Shown piece by piece: positions 1,138 to 4,893 of a stretch of 6,252 bases of DNA. The position numbers were made by a program, and so were the translations under genes. Each line of letters starts with the position of its first letter. The stretch's first letter is position 1. The stretch is from a virus. Lineage: Duplodnaviria; Heunggongvirae; Uroviricota; Caudoviricetes. Below the pieces are notes generated by a model, which was not told the DNA's origin, did no database searches, and saw nothing but the letters and a program-made list of their open reading frames with translations. Location: IMG/VR virus record IMGVR_UViG_2778261453_000008; one strand, given 5' to 3'.

Positions 1138-1884
1138 TTACTTCACAACCCTCATATTGCTGACATTTGGACGCCAGCTATCCCAGTTAAACGTCACCCA
1201 TCGACCACCGTTCATGGTCATGCGGTCCATAATCCTCTCACCAAGAAGCGTACTCATTGCGGCATGATTCAGGTTTGTTAACATCCCGACACTGCACAGT
1301 GATGCTGTCCGGCGATCAATTATCTGGTGCAATACCACCTGCTCGTTTTTCGTCTCCCGCTGAACGCCTATTTCATCCAGGACCAGCAAATCAACCCCGC
1401 AAAGCTCCTGTAAAAATTTTTCCCCGGATTTGCCGTTGTCGTAGCTGTCATGCAACACGCTCATGACGTCAGACACGGTGACGATAATCACGCTGCGCCC
1501 CTTCACCATCAGCCGGTTGCCCATCGCCGCTGCAAGGTGATTTTTCCCGGTGCCGGTTTTACCGCTGAACACAAAATTCGTGCACCCGGTCATCAGTTCG
1601 TCAGCTATGGATTTGGCCTGGCTCAGCGCGTATTTTTGCCCGTCGTTCTGCACCTGATAATTTGCAAACGAGCATTTGCTGTGCAGAGGCTGGATGCCCG
1701 AACGATTCAGGATTTTTTCCACCCGCAACTGGCGATTCTGGCGGTTAATCTCCTCGCTGCGTTTTCGTCCTTCAGCAAGTTGCCATTCCCGCCACTCCTC
1801 CACCGTCCGGTACGGTGGAACCGACCCCTGTGGTGCAAGTCTGCGAATACGTTCAAGAACCCCAACTGCCGCAATGTTTTTCAT
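1138..1884 (-). CDS. DnaC-like replicative helicase loader (AAA+ ATPase; lambda P functional analogue, Rac YdaV position)
   Basis: 248-aa ORF with a DnaC-type Walker A (FSGKTGTGKNHLAAA) and Walker B (DLLVLDEIG). ATG at 1884..1882 lies 6 nt after the O-like stop (1891..1893), suggesting translational coupling. Confidence 0.9.
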   Translation of the reverse strand: MKNIAAVGVLERIRRLAPQGSVPPYRTVEEWREWQLAEGRKRSEEINRQNRQLRVEKILNRSGIQPLHSKCSFANYQVQNDGQKYALSQAKSIADELMTGCTNFVFSGKTGTGKNHLAAAMGNRLMVKGRSVIIVTVSDVMSVLHDSYDNGKSGEKFLQELCGVDLLVLDEIGVQRETKNEQVVLHQIIDRRTASLCSVGMLTNLNHAAMSTLLGERIMDRMTMNGGRWVTFNWDSWRPNVSNMRVVK

Positions 1885-1890
1885 GACACG

Positions 1891-2853
1891 TCACCCCCTG
1901 AATCCCGGCGGTATTTCAGTGTCCGGTTCAGAAATGTGATTCACGCAACGCTGCGCGGGCGAACGCCCCAGGCGGATAACCAGTTCATCCCATTTTTCCC
2001 GGAGTTTTGCCGGACTCATGATGTTTTTTACCCAGAACGAATCCCGCTGGAGACGCCCAAACATTTCACAAATTTGTCTGTGAGTTCTGCCATCCAGCAT
2101 CCGCATTGTGCGAACGTCATTGGCCCATGCAGTCCAGTTGGGTTCTTTCGGTCTAGTGATCTCGCCATCATCGCTGGCCGCCTGCTCGTAAAGACTCACG
2201 ATTCGTCCCCAGATCCACTGTGCGCACACCAAATCTTCCTGACTTCCCCACTGGCGTTTTTTCGCACTGAACACAACCGCGTCAGGGTGTCGGGTTAAAA
2301 AATCCTGTTCAGCCGTCTGCGGGTCCGGTTGCGAAGCGTCCGGACAAGAAGATCTTTTATCTGACGGATCAGGTTTTAATACTGACGGATCGGGGTCAAT
2401 CATCGCCCCCCTAATCGGCAGTTTTTTATCAACAGTTGATCCATCAAAATTTGACGGGTCAACCGTTGAGGGGTCAATATTTGACGGGTCAACTGTTAAC
2501 GGGTCATTTTTTGCCGGGCTAATTTTTCTTTTCGGTTTATATGACTCACGCGCCGCCGCAGCAGCTGCTTCGAGTTTTTCCACATTAAGCCGATAGATAT
2601 TGCTTACATTACGCCCACCGACCTTACGCTCTTCCTTCGTCAGCCAGCCCTCTTTCGCCAGTTCTGCAATAGCCGATTTCACTGTGGATTCACTTCTTGC
2701 ACCGATCTGACGCCGGATAGTTTCAATGGCAGGCCATGACACGCCCTCGTCATTGCTGTAGTCTGCAAGACGGGCCATAACCGCCACCCTGGATAAGATC
2801 ATGCCGGTGAAGGCGCACCCTTCCCAGACAAGACCATGAAGCTTGCTGCTCAT
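1891..2853 (-). CDS. Phage replication initiator, lambda O-like (Rac YdaU position), with ori iterons inside the coding sequence
   Basis: Long minus-strand ORF. The N-terminal part resembles a winged-helix DNA-binding domain (...LADYSNDEGVSWPAIETIRRQIG...KSAIAELAKEGWL...). The central linker is a periodic peptide (DPSNIDPSTVDPSNFDGSTVD) encoded by the iteron array. The track starts at GTG 2868; I prefer ATG 2853..2851, which has a GGGGG SD 4 nt upstream, while the GTG has none. Confidence 0.85.
   Translation of the reverse strand: MSSKLHGLVWEGCAFTGMILSRVAVMARLADYSNDEGVSWPAIETIRRQIGARSESTVKSAIAELAKEGWLTKEERKVGGRNVSNIYRLNVEKLEAAAAAARESYKPKRKISPAKNDPLTVDPSNIDPSTVDPSNFDGSTVDKKLPIRGAMIDPDPSVLKPDPSDKRSSCPDASQPDPQTAEQDFLTRHPDAVVFSAKKRQWGSQEDLVCAQWIWGRIVSLYEQAASDDGEITRPKEPNWTAWANDVRTMRMLDGRTHRQICEMFGRLQRDSFWVKNIMSPAKLREKWDELVIRLGRSPAQRCVNHISEPDTEIPPGFRG
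2361..2520. repeat. Iteron array (putative prophage origin of replication) with adjacent AT-rich stretch
   Basis: Six tandem 15-bp units start at 2436, 2451, 2466, 2481, 2496 and 2511 (ttgatccatcaaa / ttgacgggtcaac / ttgaggggtcaat / ttgacgggtcaac / ttaacgggtcatt / ttgccgggct), each with internal dyad symmetry TTGAC..GTCAA. Two related copies, ctgacggatc, lie at 2361..2370 and 2382..2391. An AT-rich stretch follows at about 2505..2550. Confidence 0.65.
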
Positions 2854-2875
2854 AAAACCCCCGAACACCGTGCTT

Positions 2876-3301
2876 TTAGTGCATCACCACAGCATTCCCT
2901 GCAGGGCCGCCGCGATTCATCTGGTCATACAAAACAACCGCTGACGCAACAAAATCATCGACATCCTTCACCAGCCGATCCCTCCGTTCGACGATCTCAC
3001 GGTAATATTCAGAACTGTGGCTGCGCATACGGGCCACCAGCAAAGGCGGCATCGCCTTTTCGATTGCCGGTAACAGAGCCTGCATTTTTTCAACAGCATC
3101 AGGGGTGTCTTTATCCAGCCAACGGAAAATTTTCTGGGTATTACGGGCCAGGGCTTCCGGATGGCTGTCGTCATACAGTTCCGGGAACGTCATTCCCAGT
3201 TCGAAATACGCTTTGGTAATTTTCGCAGCCGGTATTTTTTCGCCGTCCGGATGCGCCCAGGCATTCATCGCCATGCGGATGTGTTCATGCTTGATTTTCA
3301 T
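2876..3301 (-). CDS. ydaT: YdaT-like protein (Rac-type, toxic when derepressed)
   Basis: 141-aa ORF starting MKIKHEHI..., which matches my recollection of YdaT in length and N-terminus. ATG at 3301..3299 has an AGGAG SD (plus 3309..3313 reverse-complemented). It overlaps the end of the upstream ydaS-like gene by 17 nt. Confidence 0.8.
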   Translation of the reverse strand: MKIKHEHIRMAMNAWAHPDGEKIPAAKITKAYFELGMTFPELYDDSHPEALARNTQKIFRWLDKDTPDAVEKMQALLPAIEKAMPPLLVARMRSHSSEYYREIVERRDRLVKDVDDFVASAVVLYDQMNRGGPAGNAVVMH

Positions 3302-3566
3302 GAATCAAGCTCCTAGTAAGTGGTTGTGTTAACGTTTTGGTATCTTCCAGCTCGGGCCAAATATTCATCCAATCAAAAGGCCTTAGTTGCTGACGTGTAA
3401 CTTCACCATTACTGGCTCGCTCAATAAGGACACATAACGATGCCCCTAACATTTGACCTTTACTCAATGCCTTTCTTAGATAACCGATGCTAGTACCACA
3501 CTCACATGCAAACATACGCTGTTCATCTGACGAAAGAGAATTGAGAAATATTCTTAATTCTTCCAT
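3285..3566 (-). CDS. ydaS: YdaS-like Cro/CI-type HTH protein (Cro analogue of Rac-type prophages)
   Basis: 93-aa ORF with a C-terminal segment (...LCVLIERASNGEVTRQQLRPFDW...) typical of the YdaS family. ATG at 3566..3564 has an AAGGAG SD 5 nt upstream. It is divergent from the repressor gene and first in the replication operon. Confidence 0.8.
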   Translation of the reverse strand: MEELRIFLNSLSSDEQRMFACECGTSIGYLRKALSKGQMLGASLCVLIERASNGEVTRQQLRPFDWMNIWPELEDTKTLTQPLTRSLIHENQA

Positions 3567-3666
3567 AGCTACTCCTTAGTAAACACAGCAAAGGATACCT
3601 ACAGGTAAACAAAAGTCAATACCCTTGGGTTGTTTACCTTGCGGTAATCGCATCTATTATTTACCT
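3567..3666. promoter_or_regulatory. Divergent promoter/operator region between the ydaS-like and repressor genes
   Basis: Two palindromic sites of form (A/T)TACC-N4-GGTAA: O1 at 3595..3608 (ATACCtacaGGTAA) and O2 at 3634..3647 (TTACCttgcGGTAA), plus a half-site TTACC at 3661..3665 abutting the repressor ATG. Candidate minus-strand promoter for ydaS: -35 TTGACT (plus 3614..3619 reverse-complemented), 16-nt spacer, -10 TATCCT (plus 3592..3597 reverse-complemented), overlapping O1. Confidence 0.55.
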
Positions 3667-4086
3667 ATGGACAAATATGAATTTAGACGACAACAACTCA
3701 TCAAAATTCGTGATGAGAAATGCGATGGTAAAGCGGTTAACGTGGCCAGAAAGATCGGTCGCGAGCCTTCTTATGTATCAAGAATGTTGTACCCAGAGGG
3801 GAAAAAAGGAAAAAAACGGATCGCTGATGATATGGTGGAGATTATAGAAGAGTCCTTTGGGTTACCCCGGGGATGGATGGATGGTATCGTTTCATCATCA
3901 ACGAACACAGCCTCCAATTATGAAACAAGGGTTCTAACGCCACGACAACGTATTTTTTTAGATCTCTTAGACGAACTGCCAGAAAGTGAAGCGGATAACT
4001 TATTAAAAACTCTTGAAGAGAAAAAACAGTATTACAATATGATCTACGAAGAAATCCGTAAAAAGAAAGCACAAAACGCATCATAA
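3667..4086 (+). CDS. Prophage immunity repressor, RacR/DicA-like (N-terminal HTH, C-terminal ELPESE-type domain)
   Basis: 139-aa ORF from ATG 3667 (MDKYEFRRQQLIKIRDEK...KAVNVARKIGREPSYVSRM...). The C-terminal ...LDELPESEADNLLKTLEE... resembles DicA/RacR-type repressors. It is divergent from the cro-like ydaS and AT-rich. The track ORF begins at an upstream TTG (3625) with no SD, so ATG 3667 is preferred. Confidence 0.8.
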   Translation: MDKYEFRRQQLIKIRDEKCDGKAVNVARKIGREPSYVSRMLYPEGKKGKKRIADDMVEIIEESFGLPRGWMDGIVSSSTNTASNYETRVLTPRQRIFLDLLDELPESEADNLLKTLEEKKQYYNMIYEEIRKKKAQNAS

Positions 4087-4120
4087 CTCACCAAACAACC
4101 AGTCACCAGTCAAGATACAT

Positions 4121-4168
4121 CAAAAAAAAATTACCCGTGGGTATTTACTTTTTGAATACCCACGGGTA
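4121..4168 (-). terminator. Rho-independent terminator hairpin, canonical on the minus strand (possibly bidirectional)
   Basis: Perfect 14-bp inverted repeat, tacccgtgggtatt (4132..4145) and aatacccacgggta (4155..4168), with a 9-nt loop. Plus-strand A9 at 4122..4130 gives a U9 tract right after the stem on the minus strand. On the plus strand the stem is followed only by tccttcctttc, so it is weaker for the repressor transcript. Confidence 0.6.
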
Positions 4169-4354
4169 TCCTTCCTTTCATACCAACCCACCCCGTCCCA
4201 CAGAACGCAGGGCAATACCTAGAGTTACCCGGCAGTGGTCAGGGGTTAAGTAGCCAGCCCGAGGCGTATGAACATGACGGCGGGAACACTTTATATAACA
4301 GCGCAGCAGGTTTTTAGTTCCGCTACCCCGGCGTTAAGGGGAAATGAGGTCAAC

Positions 4355-4507
4355 ATGGATACGCTCAATCTTGGCAACAACGAATCTCTGGTGTGCGGCG
4401 TGTTCCCAAACCAGGACGGTACGTTCACCGCAATGACGTATACCAAAAGCAAAACGCTTAAAACCGAATCTGGCGCGCGTCGCTGGTTAGCCAGAAACAC
4501 TGACTGA
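4355..4507 (+). CDS. Small conserved prophage protein, 50 aa (Rac YdaF/YdaG-like position)
   Basis: ATG 4355 with a GAGG SD (4346..4349) and 5-nt spacer; product MDTLNLGNNESLVCGVFPNQDGTFTAMTYTKSKTLKTESGARRWLARNTD. The track extends the frame up to ATG 4268, but that extension has rare codons (ATA, AGG, GGA) and contains a -10-like TATATA/TATAAC at 4293..4300, so I read it as promoter/5' UTR. Confidence 0.55.
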   Translation: MDTLNLGNNESLVCGVFPNQDGTFTAMTYTKSKTLKTESGARRWLARNTD

Positions 4508-4518
4508 TGAGGTTGACG

Positions 4519-4893
4519 ATGGAATTTAAAGATTTACCAATACCATTTCAGGAAATGGCAGCGAATATAGTTCGTTCTCAATTGGCTACTCTTGACCTGA
4601 GTACCGTAGAAAAAGAAACCATCGATAATATATCCGGTAACGTGCGCCGAGCCTTTATCGGGCTATACGAAGAGAAGCAGCTCTCTGATAACCAGGATTT
4701 ACATGAAAAATACTTTCTGGAATTAATGGACATCATTAATAAGGGATTTGGCCTGTTAATGAAAAAGAAAGGGATTCGAATAGCCCCCCTTGAAAATCAT
4801 TTTACAGCAAGCAGTATTAATTCCTGTGATTTAAAGCATCACACATCCGATAGGAAAGTTGAATCCACCTATAAAATATCAATTAATCATTAA
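4519..4893 (+). CDS. Hypothetical protein, AT-rich moron in the immunity region (124 aa; 128 aa if started at ATG 4507)
   Basis: ORF immediately after the small ORF. ATG 4507 overlaps its TGA by 1 nt, and ATG 4519 has a GAGG SD (4510..4513) with 5-nt spacer. GC is about 37% in a 119-nt sample I counted, versus about 58% in a sample of the DnaC-like gene. No transmembrane segment or recognisable motif; ends ...TSDRKVESTYKISINH. Confidence 0.6.
   Translation: MEFKDLPIPFQEMAANIVRSQLATLDLSTVEKETIDNISGNVRRAFIGLYEEKQLSDNQDLHEKYFLELMDIINKGFGLLMKKKGIRIAPLENHFTASSINSCDLKHHTSDRKVESTYKISINH

Follow-up and report, generated by a model that had tools for sequence, protein, structure and literature searches.

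The 17-nt overlap of a cro-like gene and ydaT in a probable lambdoid prophage of Escherichia coli coincides with a predicted YdaT-box operator

Introduction

Two regulatory genes that share 17 nt of a tailed-phage sequence raise a simple question: does the overlap mark a toxin module guarded by a repressor, or is it a part of the usual phage switch? The case considered here is a 6,252-nt stretch of DNA from the IMG/VR virus record IMGVR_UViG_2778261453_000008 (Caudoviricetes), analyzed at its full length and called the window below, in which a cro-like gene runs into ydaT. The original prediction for this locus had described the pair as a tightly coupled, toxic unit.

Our analysis suggests another answer. 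Very probably, the window represents the immunity and early-right region of a lambdoid E. coli prophage of the Rac/CP-933P type, and the overlap is the junction of the immunity and replication modules, situated on a YdaT-box. The feature itself is already known, as the published YdaT-box at the junction of the cro and cII analogues in Rac/CP-933P-type prophages. It reflects the usual circuitry of a lambdoid phage rather than a module dedicated to toxicity.

Gene arrangement around the overlap

Both overlapping genes are encoded on the minus strand. The gene for a Cro-like (YdaS-like) helix-turn-helix (HTH) regulator (3285..3566, 93 aa) is read from the ATG at 3566, which is preceded by AAGGAG 5 nt upstream, to the TGA stop at 3287..3285 ('tca' on the plus strand). 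The next gene, ydaT (2876..3301, 141 aa), encodes a transcription activator equivalent to CII, in which a POU-type HTH is combined with a tetramerising helix; its ATG occupies positions 3301..3299. Both the ORF calls and direct reading of the sequence give a minus-strand overlap of 17 nt (3285..3301), in which the end of the Cro-like ORF (…H E N Q A stop) is written out of frame over ydaT codons 1-6. The Shine-Dalgarno (SD) sequence of ydaT, AGGAG (3310..3314, minus strand), is separated from the ATG by an 8-nt spacer and lies within the Cro-like coding sequence. The two genes leave no space between them in which a promoter or terminator could fit, and the pair has the arrangement regarded as a sign of translational coupling, with the downstream start and its SD sequence both inside the upstream ORF. 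The identical 17-nt overlap was annotated by the NCBI pipeline PGAP in E. coli DA33137 (locus L001, 97.6% identical), where the genes are given as 4486..4767, 'transcriptional regulator', and 4077..4502, 'toxin YdaT family protein', and also in the O157:H7 strain AC-5.

On the other side of the cro-like gene, a divergent repressor-like gene (3667..4086, plus strand) encodes a protein of 139 aa that matches PHROG 5736 'transcriptional regulator' (E 5e-70). In this protein, no LexA-type peptidase domain and no Pfam match were detected. It is weakly similar to PaaR2, the CI analogue of CP-933P (23% identity over 90 aa, E 9e-9), and to the C-terminus of DicA, and it shows no similarity to RacR. 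The intergenic region of 100 bp contains two predicted promoters on opposite strands. The PR-like sigma-70 promoter of the cro-ydaT-O-dnaC operon (3592..3619, minus strand; TTGACT-16-TATCCT) was found by a consensus scan with 9/12 matching positions. The PRM-like promoter (3633..3660, plus strand; TTTACC-16-TATTAT) has a -10 element that ends 6 nt upstream of the repressor ATG. Its predicted transcription start falls at about 3667, on the A of this ATG, which implies that the repressor mRNA would be leaderless; PaaR2 of CP-933P is translated from a leaderless message (PMC8630535).

Three operator-like palindromes TACC-N4-GGTA are located within 3596..3646 (at 3596, 3620 and 3635) and overlap the -10 and -35 elements of the PR-like promoter and the -35 element of the PRM-like promoter. 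Three more (4132..4227; at 4132, 4157 and 4216) form a candidate OL downstream of the repressor gene, where those at 4132 and 4157 also make a terminator-like inverted repeat. Altogether the window contains nine matches to this motif with at most one mismatch, against 1.4 expected. By analogy with lambda and with the OR sites of CP-933P, we infer that these palindromes may function as OR/OL-like operators. Thus, the region has the predicted layout of a lambdoid immunity region: a divergent repressor/cro pair about 100 bp apart, back-to-back promoters and operator sets on both sides. A gene for a DUF1391 protein, and not a paaA2-parE2 pair, lies downstream of the repressor-like gene.

Downstream of ydaT follow an O-like replication initiator (1891..2855, minus strand; PHROG 391, E 2e-115) and a DnaC-like helicase loader (1138..1884, minus strand; Pfam IstB_IS21, E 7e-19; PHROG 50, E 8e-82), and then a gene for a DUF1627 protein. 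The O-like ATG at 2855 agrees with the 963-nt CDS annotated in DA33137. A search for tandem repeats found about five 15-nt iterons (2429..2527) inside the O-like gene, which form a candidate replication origin.

The anatomy drawn by the original prediction holds well at this level. Its 17-nt overlap with the ydaT ATG at 3301 was confirmed in every coordinate and recurs in RefSeq relatives, and its AGGAG SD within the 3' end of the ydaS-like gene was found at 3314..3310. The placement of the pair directly ahead of O-like and DnaC-like genes agrees with the Pfam and PHROG matches. Control of the pair by the repressor, which it also proposed, is plausible from anatomy and homology, given the divergent repressor-like gene and the palindromes over the PR-like promoter. 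The homologous pair of Rac is transcribed as a bicistronic mRNA repressed by RacR (PMC5700373, PMC11879457).

Identity of the two regulators

The identity of YdaT can be regarded as settled because the protein is about 99% identical to the crystallized YdaT of CP-933P (PDB 8BT1; E 4e-92), with two substitutions over the aligned 140 residues. It belongs to the Pfam family PF06254 (YdaT_toxin), scoring 40.9 bits against a cut-off of 21 bits, and matches PHROG 163 'CII-like transcriptional activator' (E 1e-47). The identity to Rac YdaT is only 31%; the recognition residues R60-W61 align with R57-W58 of the Rac protein. The gene also occupies the position typical of the family, between a cro-like gene and a replication initiator and divergent from the repressor. 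In isolated phages, a YdaT homologue is annotated as 'activator protein cII' and is found beside Cro or DicC. For the YdaT proteins of both CP-933P and Rac, binding of the box by a tetramer and activation of a leftward promoter directed towards the repressor gene have been shown.

The upstream protein is less clearly assigned. It matches PHROG 35 'transcriptional repressor' (E 2e-23) and the CP-933P YdaS deposited as 'antirepressor protein Cro' (PDB 8c7k/8co2; E 1.5e-10, 36% identity), and its RefSeq name is 'transcriptional regulator'. Its score for Pfam YdaS_toxin (PF15943), 25.9 bits, is below the 30-bit cut-off of the family. Judging from these matches, 'Cro-like' appears to be a safe label, and 'YdaS family member' a borderline one. 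In NCBIfam, neither this protein nor YdaT has a match.

A predicted YdaT-box on the overlap

The plus strand at 3291..3308 reads TTGATT-TTCATG-AATCAA, an inverted repeat TTGATT-N6-AATCAA with the ydaT ATG in its spacer. The pattern has one exact match in the window and none in 200 shuffles. In CP-933P, footprinting identified the same sequence, 5'-TTGATT-N6-AATCAA-3', where ydaS meets ydaT, as OM, the operator bound by YdaT with high affinity (PMC9986795). The predicted site in the window is identical to it and differs by 1 nt from the YdaT-box of Rac, ATGATTCATGAAAATCAA, footprinted by Wons et al. (PMC11879457). It also corresponds to the form common to the family, (T/A)TGATT-N6-AATCAA straddling the ydaT start codon. 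Judged by sequence, the overlap coincides with the published YdaT operator, a point missed by the original prediction.

In this allele the palindrome is extended to 8-bp arms, GCTTGATT and AATCAAGC (3289..3310), compared with 6 bp in CP-933P. A palindrome of such unusual length hints at an additional function at the RNA level, although the explanation of the overlap as a by-product of its junction, given below, does not need one. In a search for secondary YdaT sites of the OL/OR kind that allowed up to two mismatches, the box had no second match. An isolated half-site AATCAA is seen by eye at 3371..3376.

The Rac box is required for YdaT to activate, 29-fold, a reverse promoter lying in ydaS and thereby to raise racR expression (PMC11879457). 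YdaT of CP-933P activates a 120-bp fragment, the PRE933P reporter (PMC8630535), whose forward primer has an exact match in the window at 3273..3292. Relative to the box, the responsive promoter is placed differently in the two prophages: within 84 bp in CP-933P and about 190 bp away in Rac. A standard scan of the plus strand from 3273 to 3600 found no leftward promoter of the PRE type, and a relaxed scan of the cro allele gave only weak candidates with 8/12 matching positions, at 3337..3365 and 3527..3554. A third weak leftward candidate, also 8/12 (TTGACC-17-TTAGAT, 3453..3481), was noticed by eye.

Variation of the junction

The conservation of the overlap was surveyed in 91 loci including the window, namely 80 IMG/VR loci with YdaT at least 96% identical and loci from E. 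coli, Shigella, E. albertii, Serratia and K-12. The IMG/VR loci were used for statistics instead of genome contigs, in which the YdaT scan had found only four loci. The measure was the distance from the stop of the upstream ORF to the ydaT ATG. Most loci (58 of 91, such as the CP-933P-type TW14359) have a 4-nt overlap formed by ATGA, with the upstream protein ending in …DS*. The 17-nt overlap, with the tail …IHENQA*, is found in 30 loci including the window. Gaps of 10 nt and 22 nt occur once each, in Serratia and in K-12 Rac, respectively, and one locus gave no upstream ORF. The Rac arrangement has been described as a 'short ~20-bp spacer' (PMC5700373). Thus, the arrangement is not conserved among relatives, contrary to what selection for coupling would imply, and an overlap of such variable length cannot be taken as evidence for a specially coupled unit. 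Overlaps of 4 and 17 nt are both tolerated in nature, and each allele keeps its own SD sequence.

What is conserved is the DNA of the junction. Column counts over 12 allele classes delimit a near-invariant block at 3277..3306, from -5 to about +24 in the sense of ydaT, which is common to all upstream classes even where the YdaT proteins are only 31% identical. Twelve upstream classes, which between them encode about ten distinct Cro-like proteins, all meet ydaT at this junction. Upstream of the block these sequences are unrelated, except for a purine-rich SD element at the same position in 12/12 classes. In a megablast search with 3,072 matching E. coli records, the matches to genomes with other cro alleles stop at window position 3307 or 3313 (query 431/432/438), placing the mosaic breakpoint just outside the block, at about 3307-3313. 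The repressor allele remains linked to the cro allele of the window in all 19 of the other loci that carry it (19/19).

The block also accounts for the two main overlap lengths. When it is read in the 17-nt frame, the first stop is the TGA formed from ydaT codons 5-6 (CAT GAA), and the tail IHENQA* is accordingly found on five unrelated Cro-like alleles. One Cro allele switches between 4 and 17 nt by the indel of a single G in a G-run (loci L032 and L085 versus L017 and L089). Because the overlap length varies and a one-G indel can flip it within one allele, the 17-nt length is a reading-frame by-product of the mosaic junction and has not been specifically selected, while the overlap itself is not due to chance. 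The remaining frame, in which the TGA within TTGATT would stop the upstream ORF and leave a 3-nt gap, is absent from the loci with the conserved junction (0/89); this absence was not counted as evidence, as the alleles are few and partly related.

Comparison with known systems

The closest characterized system is the cryptic prophage CP-933P (Sp12) of E. coli O157:H7 with its repressor PaaR2 (Jurenas 2021, PMC8630535; Prolic-Kalinsek 2023, PMC9986795; PDB 8BT1, 8C7K). Apart from the nearly identical YdaT and the same box at the ydaT ATG, the window has in common with it the gene order (repressor, divergent cro-like gene, ydaT, O-like, DnaC-like) and a small, weakly PaaR2-related repressor that is devoid of a peptidase domain and predicted to start on a leaderless message. 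The systems differ in the cro allele and the repressor; in the operators, which are TACC-N4-GGTA here and GTTTAGTAA-type repeats in CP-933P; in the overlap, 17 nt here and 4 nt there; and in the genes after the repressor, a DUF1391 gene here and the paaA2-parE2 toxin-antitoxin (TA) pair there.

The racR/ydaS-ydaT region of K-12 Rac (Krishnamurthi 2017, Bindal 2017, Wons 2025) has the same architecture, with the box over the ydaT ATG, and its first eight ydaT codons are identical to those of the window save for one synonymous base. There, too, YdaT activates transcription of the repressor through the reverse promoter in ydaS. However, the Rac genes are 22 nt apart, YdaS aligns with the Cro-like protein over just 44 aa, and RacR is unrelated to the repressor-like protein found here.

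A further parallel is the lambda cI/cro-cII region with PRE. Both have a divergent repressor, triple operators on its two sides (predicted here), the order of cro, cII and the O- and P-type replication genes, and the right edge of an exchangeable immunity module between cro and cII. The analogy in position is close, too, as in both a site for the activator is found at the extreme 5' end of the activator's own gene: the lambda TTGC-N6-TTGC lies in cII codons 3-8, reportedly the finding of Ho, Wulff and Rosenberg in 1983. The differences are also clear. The proteins of the window have no sequence similarity to those of lambda, and the repressor has no RecA-cleavable domain. YdaT recognizes an inverted repeat, whereas CII recognizes a direct one. 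The window also has no cro-cII intergenic region, so there is no room for nutR or tR1.

Explanation of the overlap and its alternatives

A natural explanation can be based on these observations. A CI-like repressor gene (3667..4086, plus strand) faces a minus-strand operon coding for the Cro-like protein, YdaT, the O-like initiator and the DnaC-like loader, and the 17-nt overlap is very probably the seam between an exchangeable immunity module (repressor and cro) and a ydaT-replication module. The TACC-N4-GGTA palindromes would serve as sites for the repressor and Cro. Judging from its homologues, YdaT would bind the box at 3291..3308 as a tetramer and could switch on a leftward promoter within the cro-like gene, raising repressor synthesis in an establishment circuit of the PRE type. 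For the homologues, the literature shows DNA binding, promoter activation and a bicistronic mRNA. The box and the first eight ydaT codons are invariant at the DNA level, while recombination just upstream swaps cro alleles, and the frame of each arriving cro decides which stop is used, the one in ATGA (4-nt overlap) or the TGA of ydaT codons 5-6 (17 nt, as in the window).

Long overlaps on the same strand often result from start-site mis-calls, and ydaT has in-frame Met codons at residues 10 and 12. One may therefore suppose that its true start is at one of them, or that the cro-like gene ends earlier, and that no real overlap exists. This is extremely improbable: the ATG at 3301 has a strong SD sequence at the correct spacing, the Cro-like ORF has no earlier in-frame stop, and E. 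coli relatives as distant as K-12 Rac share the N-terminus MKIKHEHI at both the protein and the DNA level, while Serratia has the related MEIKHEQI. Moreover, the proteins crystallized for 8BT1 and 3C4R start with these residues, and the literature names this very ATG, in the spacer of the YdaT-box, as the ydaT initiation codon (PMC11879457); a mis-annotated start was rejected on these grounds. A different alternative accepts the overlap and takes the pair for toxic cargo, a toxin or TA-like module that is joined to the replication operon and would serve mainly to render the repressor indispensable. It draws on the Pfam and RefSeq names 'toxin YdaT' and 'YdaS_toxin', and on Rac, where the original prediction was accurate: racR of K-12 can be deleted only together with ydaS-ydaT (PMC5700373), over-expression of Rac YdaT kills the cells (PMC11879457), and the repressor is essential. 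In CP-933P, prolonged over-expression of YdaS slows growth (PMC8630535). However, the Rac toxicity data are not directly transferable to this locus. The YdaT of the window is only 31% identical to that of Rac, and Rac is no precedent for the overlap either, its genes being separated by a gap. The CP-933P YdaT, practically the same protein as that of the window, showed no toxicity, and its pair proved not to be a TA system (PMC8630535); hence, the toxin-module reading is not supported for this YdaT type. An earlier test of TA activity was also negative, according to the passage of PMC5917428 that cites it. Toxicity of Rac YdaT itself has been explained by its activity as a transcription factor on host promoters, including rcsA (PMC11879457), and the pair has been reinterpreted as Cro and CII analogues (PMC5917428, PMC8630535, PMC9986795). 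The arrangement of the locus speaks against a toxin module as well. Type II TA pairs are self-contained two-gene autoregulated operons, but here the two genes open a longer cro-cII-O-DnaC operon under a separate divergent repressor with its own putative operators. The Cro-like protein falls short of the YdaS family threshold, and the same genes occupy the cro and cII positions of isolated phages. One locus of the survey (L054) has a frameshifted repressor and intact cro and ydaT, a weak argument, as the frameshift may be a sequencing error. Taken together, this reading is unlikely here, although by analogy with Rac, where expression of YdaT or YdaS kills the cells (PMC5700373, PMC11879457), derepression of this locus might have toxic effects.

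Another group of alternatives concerns the RNA. The segment 3316..3285 is predicted to form a hairpin of -9.2 kcal/mol (z = -2.3), much more stable than those of 12 other representative junctions (-1.7 to -4.1 kcal/mol). The first base of its stem (3310..3289) is the last G of the SD sequence, the AUG is in the loop, and the Cro-like stop (3287..3285) is located just 3' of the stem, 2 nt past it. Given this geometry, with the ydaT SD inside the upstream ORF, allele-specific coupling can be envisaged: the 8-bp palindrome would act as an mRNA hairpin, ribosomes translating Cro would melt its stem, and YdaT synthesis would be tied to Cro translation, fixing the ratio of Cro to the CII analogue. 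It is established that a start-site structure of this strength lowers de novo initiation and that upstream translation can relieve the effect, as is attributed to de Smit and van Duin and to Adhin and van Duin. On the other hand, such a hairpin arises whenever the DNA operator is transcribed, and no RNA function is needed to account for it. Folded in its 84-nt context, it is not exceptional (z only -1.4). The AUG is a part of the loop and not of the stem, and the SD sequence is largely unpaired. Other alleles work with weak hairpins, 4-nt overlaps or gaps, and the presence of an SD sequence in every allele suggests independent initiation. We consider such coupling possible but rather doubtful; it could coexist with the explanation by a YdaT-box and a mosaic junction. 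A stronger version, in which the palindrome with 8-bp arms is also an RNA switch, seems improbable. According to it, the hairpin would block independent initiation at ydaT, so that the CII equivalent would be made only via read-through from the Cro-like gene into the 17-nt overlap, and the junction frame and arm length would be evolvable settings of the Cro:CII ratio. If true, these settings would tune the frequency of lysogeny across swapped immunity modules.

Implications for annotation

The explanation by an operator at a module junction introduces no new principle, and the twelve upstream classes on one invariant 30-bp operator/start block provide a tidy example of modular phage evolution. 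Its main value is corrective. The names 'toxin YdaT' and 'YdaS_toxin' invite interpretation of such loci as toxin genes, while the closest homologues that have been characterized act in a lambdoid switch, as its Cro and CII analogues. For surveys of prophages and TA systems, correct annotation is therefore important, since the immunity type is a common one: 813 of 5,426 complete E. coli genomes contain 80% or more of the segment 2800..4150.

The cro-like/ydaT junction

In the window, the cro-like gene (3566..3285, minus strand) and ydaT (3301..2876, minus strand), the CII equivalent, overlap by 17 nt. The frame in which the cro-like gene ends varies among related loci from IMG/VR. A single Cro-like allele has six or seven G's preceding GATTCATG upstream of ydaT (loci L017, L022, and L089 versus L032 and L085), and this difference flips the Cro-like C-terminus between …GGIHENQA with the 17-nt overlap and …GGDS with a 4-nt overlap. 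The G-run variation is a natural experiment showing that the 17-nt and 4-nt forms are both tolerated. The third frame, with TGA within TTGATT as the stop codon and a 3-nt gap, was found in no Cro-like allele across 89 loci with the conserved junction, which represent too few independent alleles to give this absence weight.

The DNA at the start of ydaT is itself conserved. Codons 1–8 and the 5 nt upstream of them (3277–3306) are nearly identical, synonymous sites included, in the window and in the comparison loci L002, L006, and L010. Such near-identity, despite just 31% identity of the YdaT proteins encoded behind it, points to either constraint at the DNA level, imposed by the operator, or recurrent recombination at this place. 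In the same region, the cro allele of the window lengthens the YdaT-box palindrome to 8-bp arms (3289–3310). The junction RNA of the window is predicted to form a hairpin whose loop contains the AUG and whose folding energy is -9.2 kcal/mol; at the 12 other representative junctions the arms are 4–6 bp, and the predicted folds range from -1.7 to -4.1 kcal/mol.

Immunity region

TACC-N4-GGTA palindromes form two clusters of three, one overlapping the divergent PR-like and PRM-like promoters (3596–3646) and the other directly past the repressor gene (4132–4227). With at most one mismatch allowed, the window contains nine matches to this motif, compared to 1.4 expected. The six clustered palindromes are candidate OR1–3 and OL1–3 operators of an uncharacterised immunity type that about 15% of complete E. 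coli genomes carry. Directly 3' of the repressor stop codon (4132–4168), two of these candidate operators jointly form a 16-pair inverted repeat. This repeat also scans as terminator-like, and it could play a double role of operator and terminator.

The PRM-like -10 element, TATTAT (3655..3660, in the region 3633–3669), ends 6 nt upstream of the repressor ATG (3667), and hence the repressor mRNA is predicted to be leaderless, similar to those of lambda cI and of paaR2 from the E. coli O157:H7 prophage CP-933P.

Locus L054 (IMG/VR UViG_2740892449_000007) has lost one G from a GGG run at 870–880, which shifts the repressor frame past approximately codon 88, and its cro-like gene and ydaT are intact. 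The missing base may be a sequencing error; otherwise, the repressor can do without its C-terminus.

Putative origin and a probably misplaced contig

The O-like gene contains approximately five tandem 15-nt iterons resembling TTTGACGGGTCAA (2429–2527), which encode the repeated peptide DPS(N/T)(I/V)D. By analogy with lambda O, whose gene also harbors the origin, these iterons probably constitute the replication origin of the prophage.

An E. coli-type cro-like/ydaT pair (85% amino acid identity, identical junction) was also observed in JAIHTM010000357.1, a 1.8-kb contig from a "Collinsella sp." MAG. Most likely, it is an enterobacterial prophage fragment mis-binned in an actinobacterial MAG.
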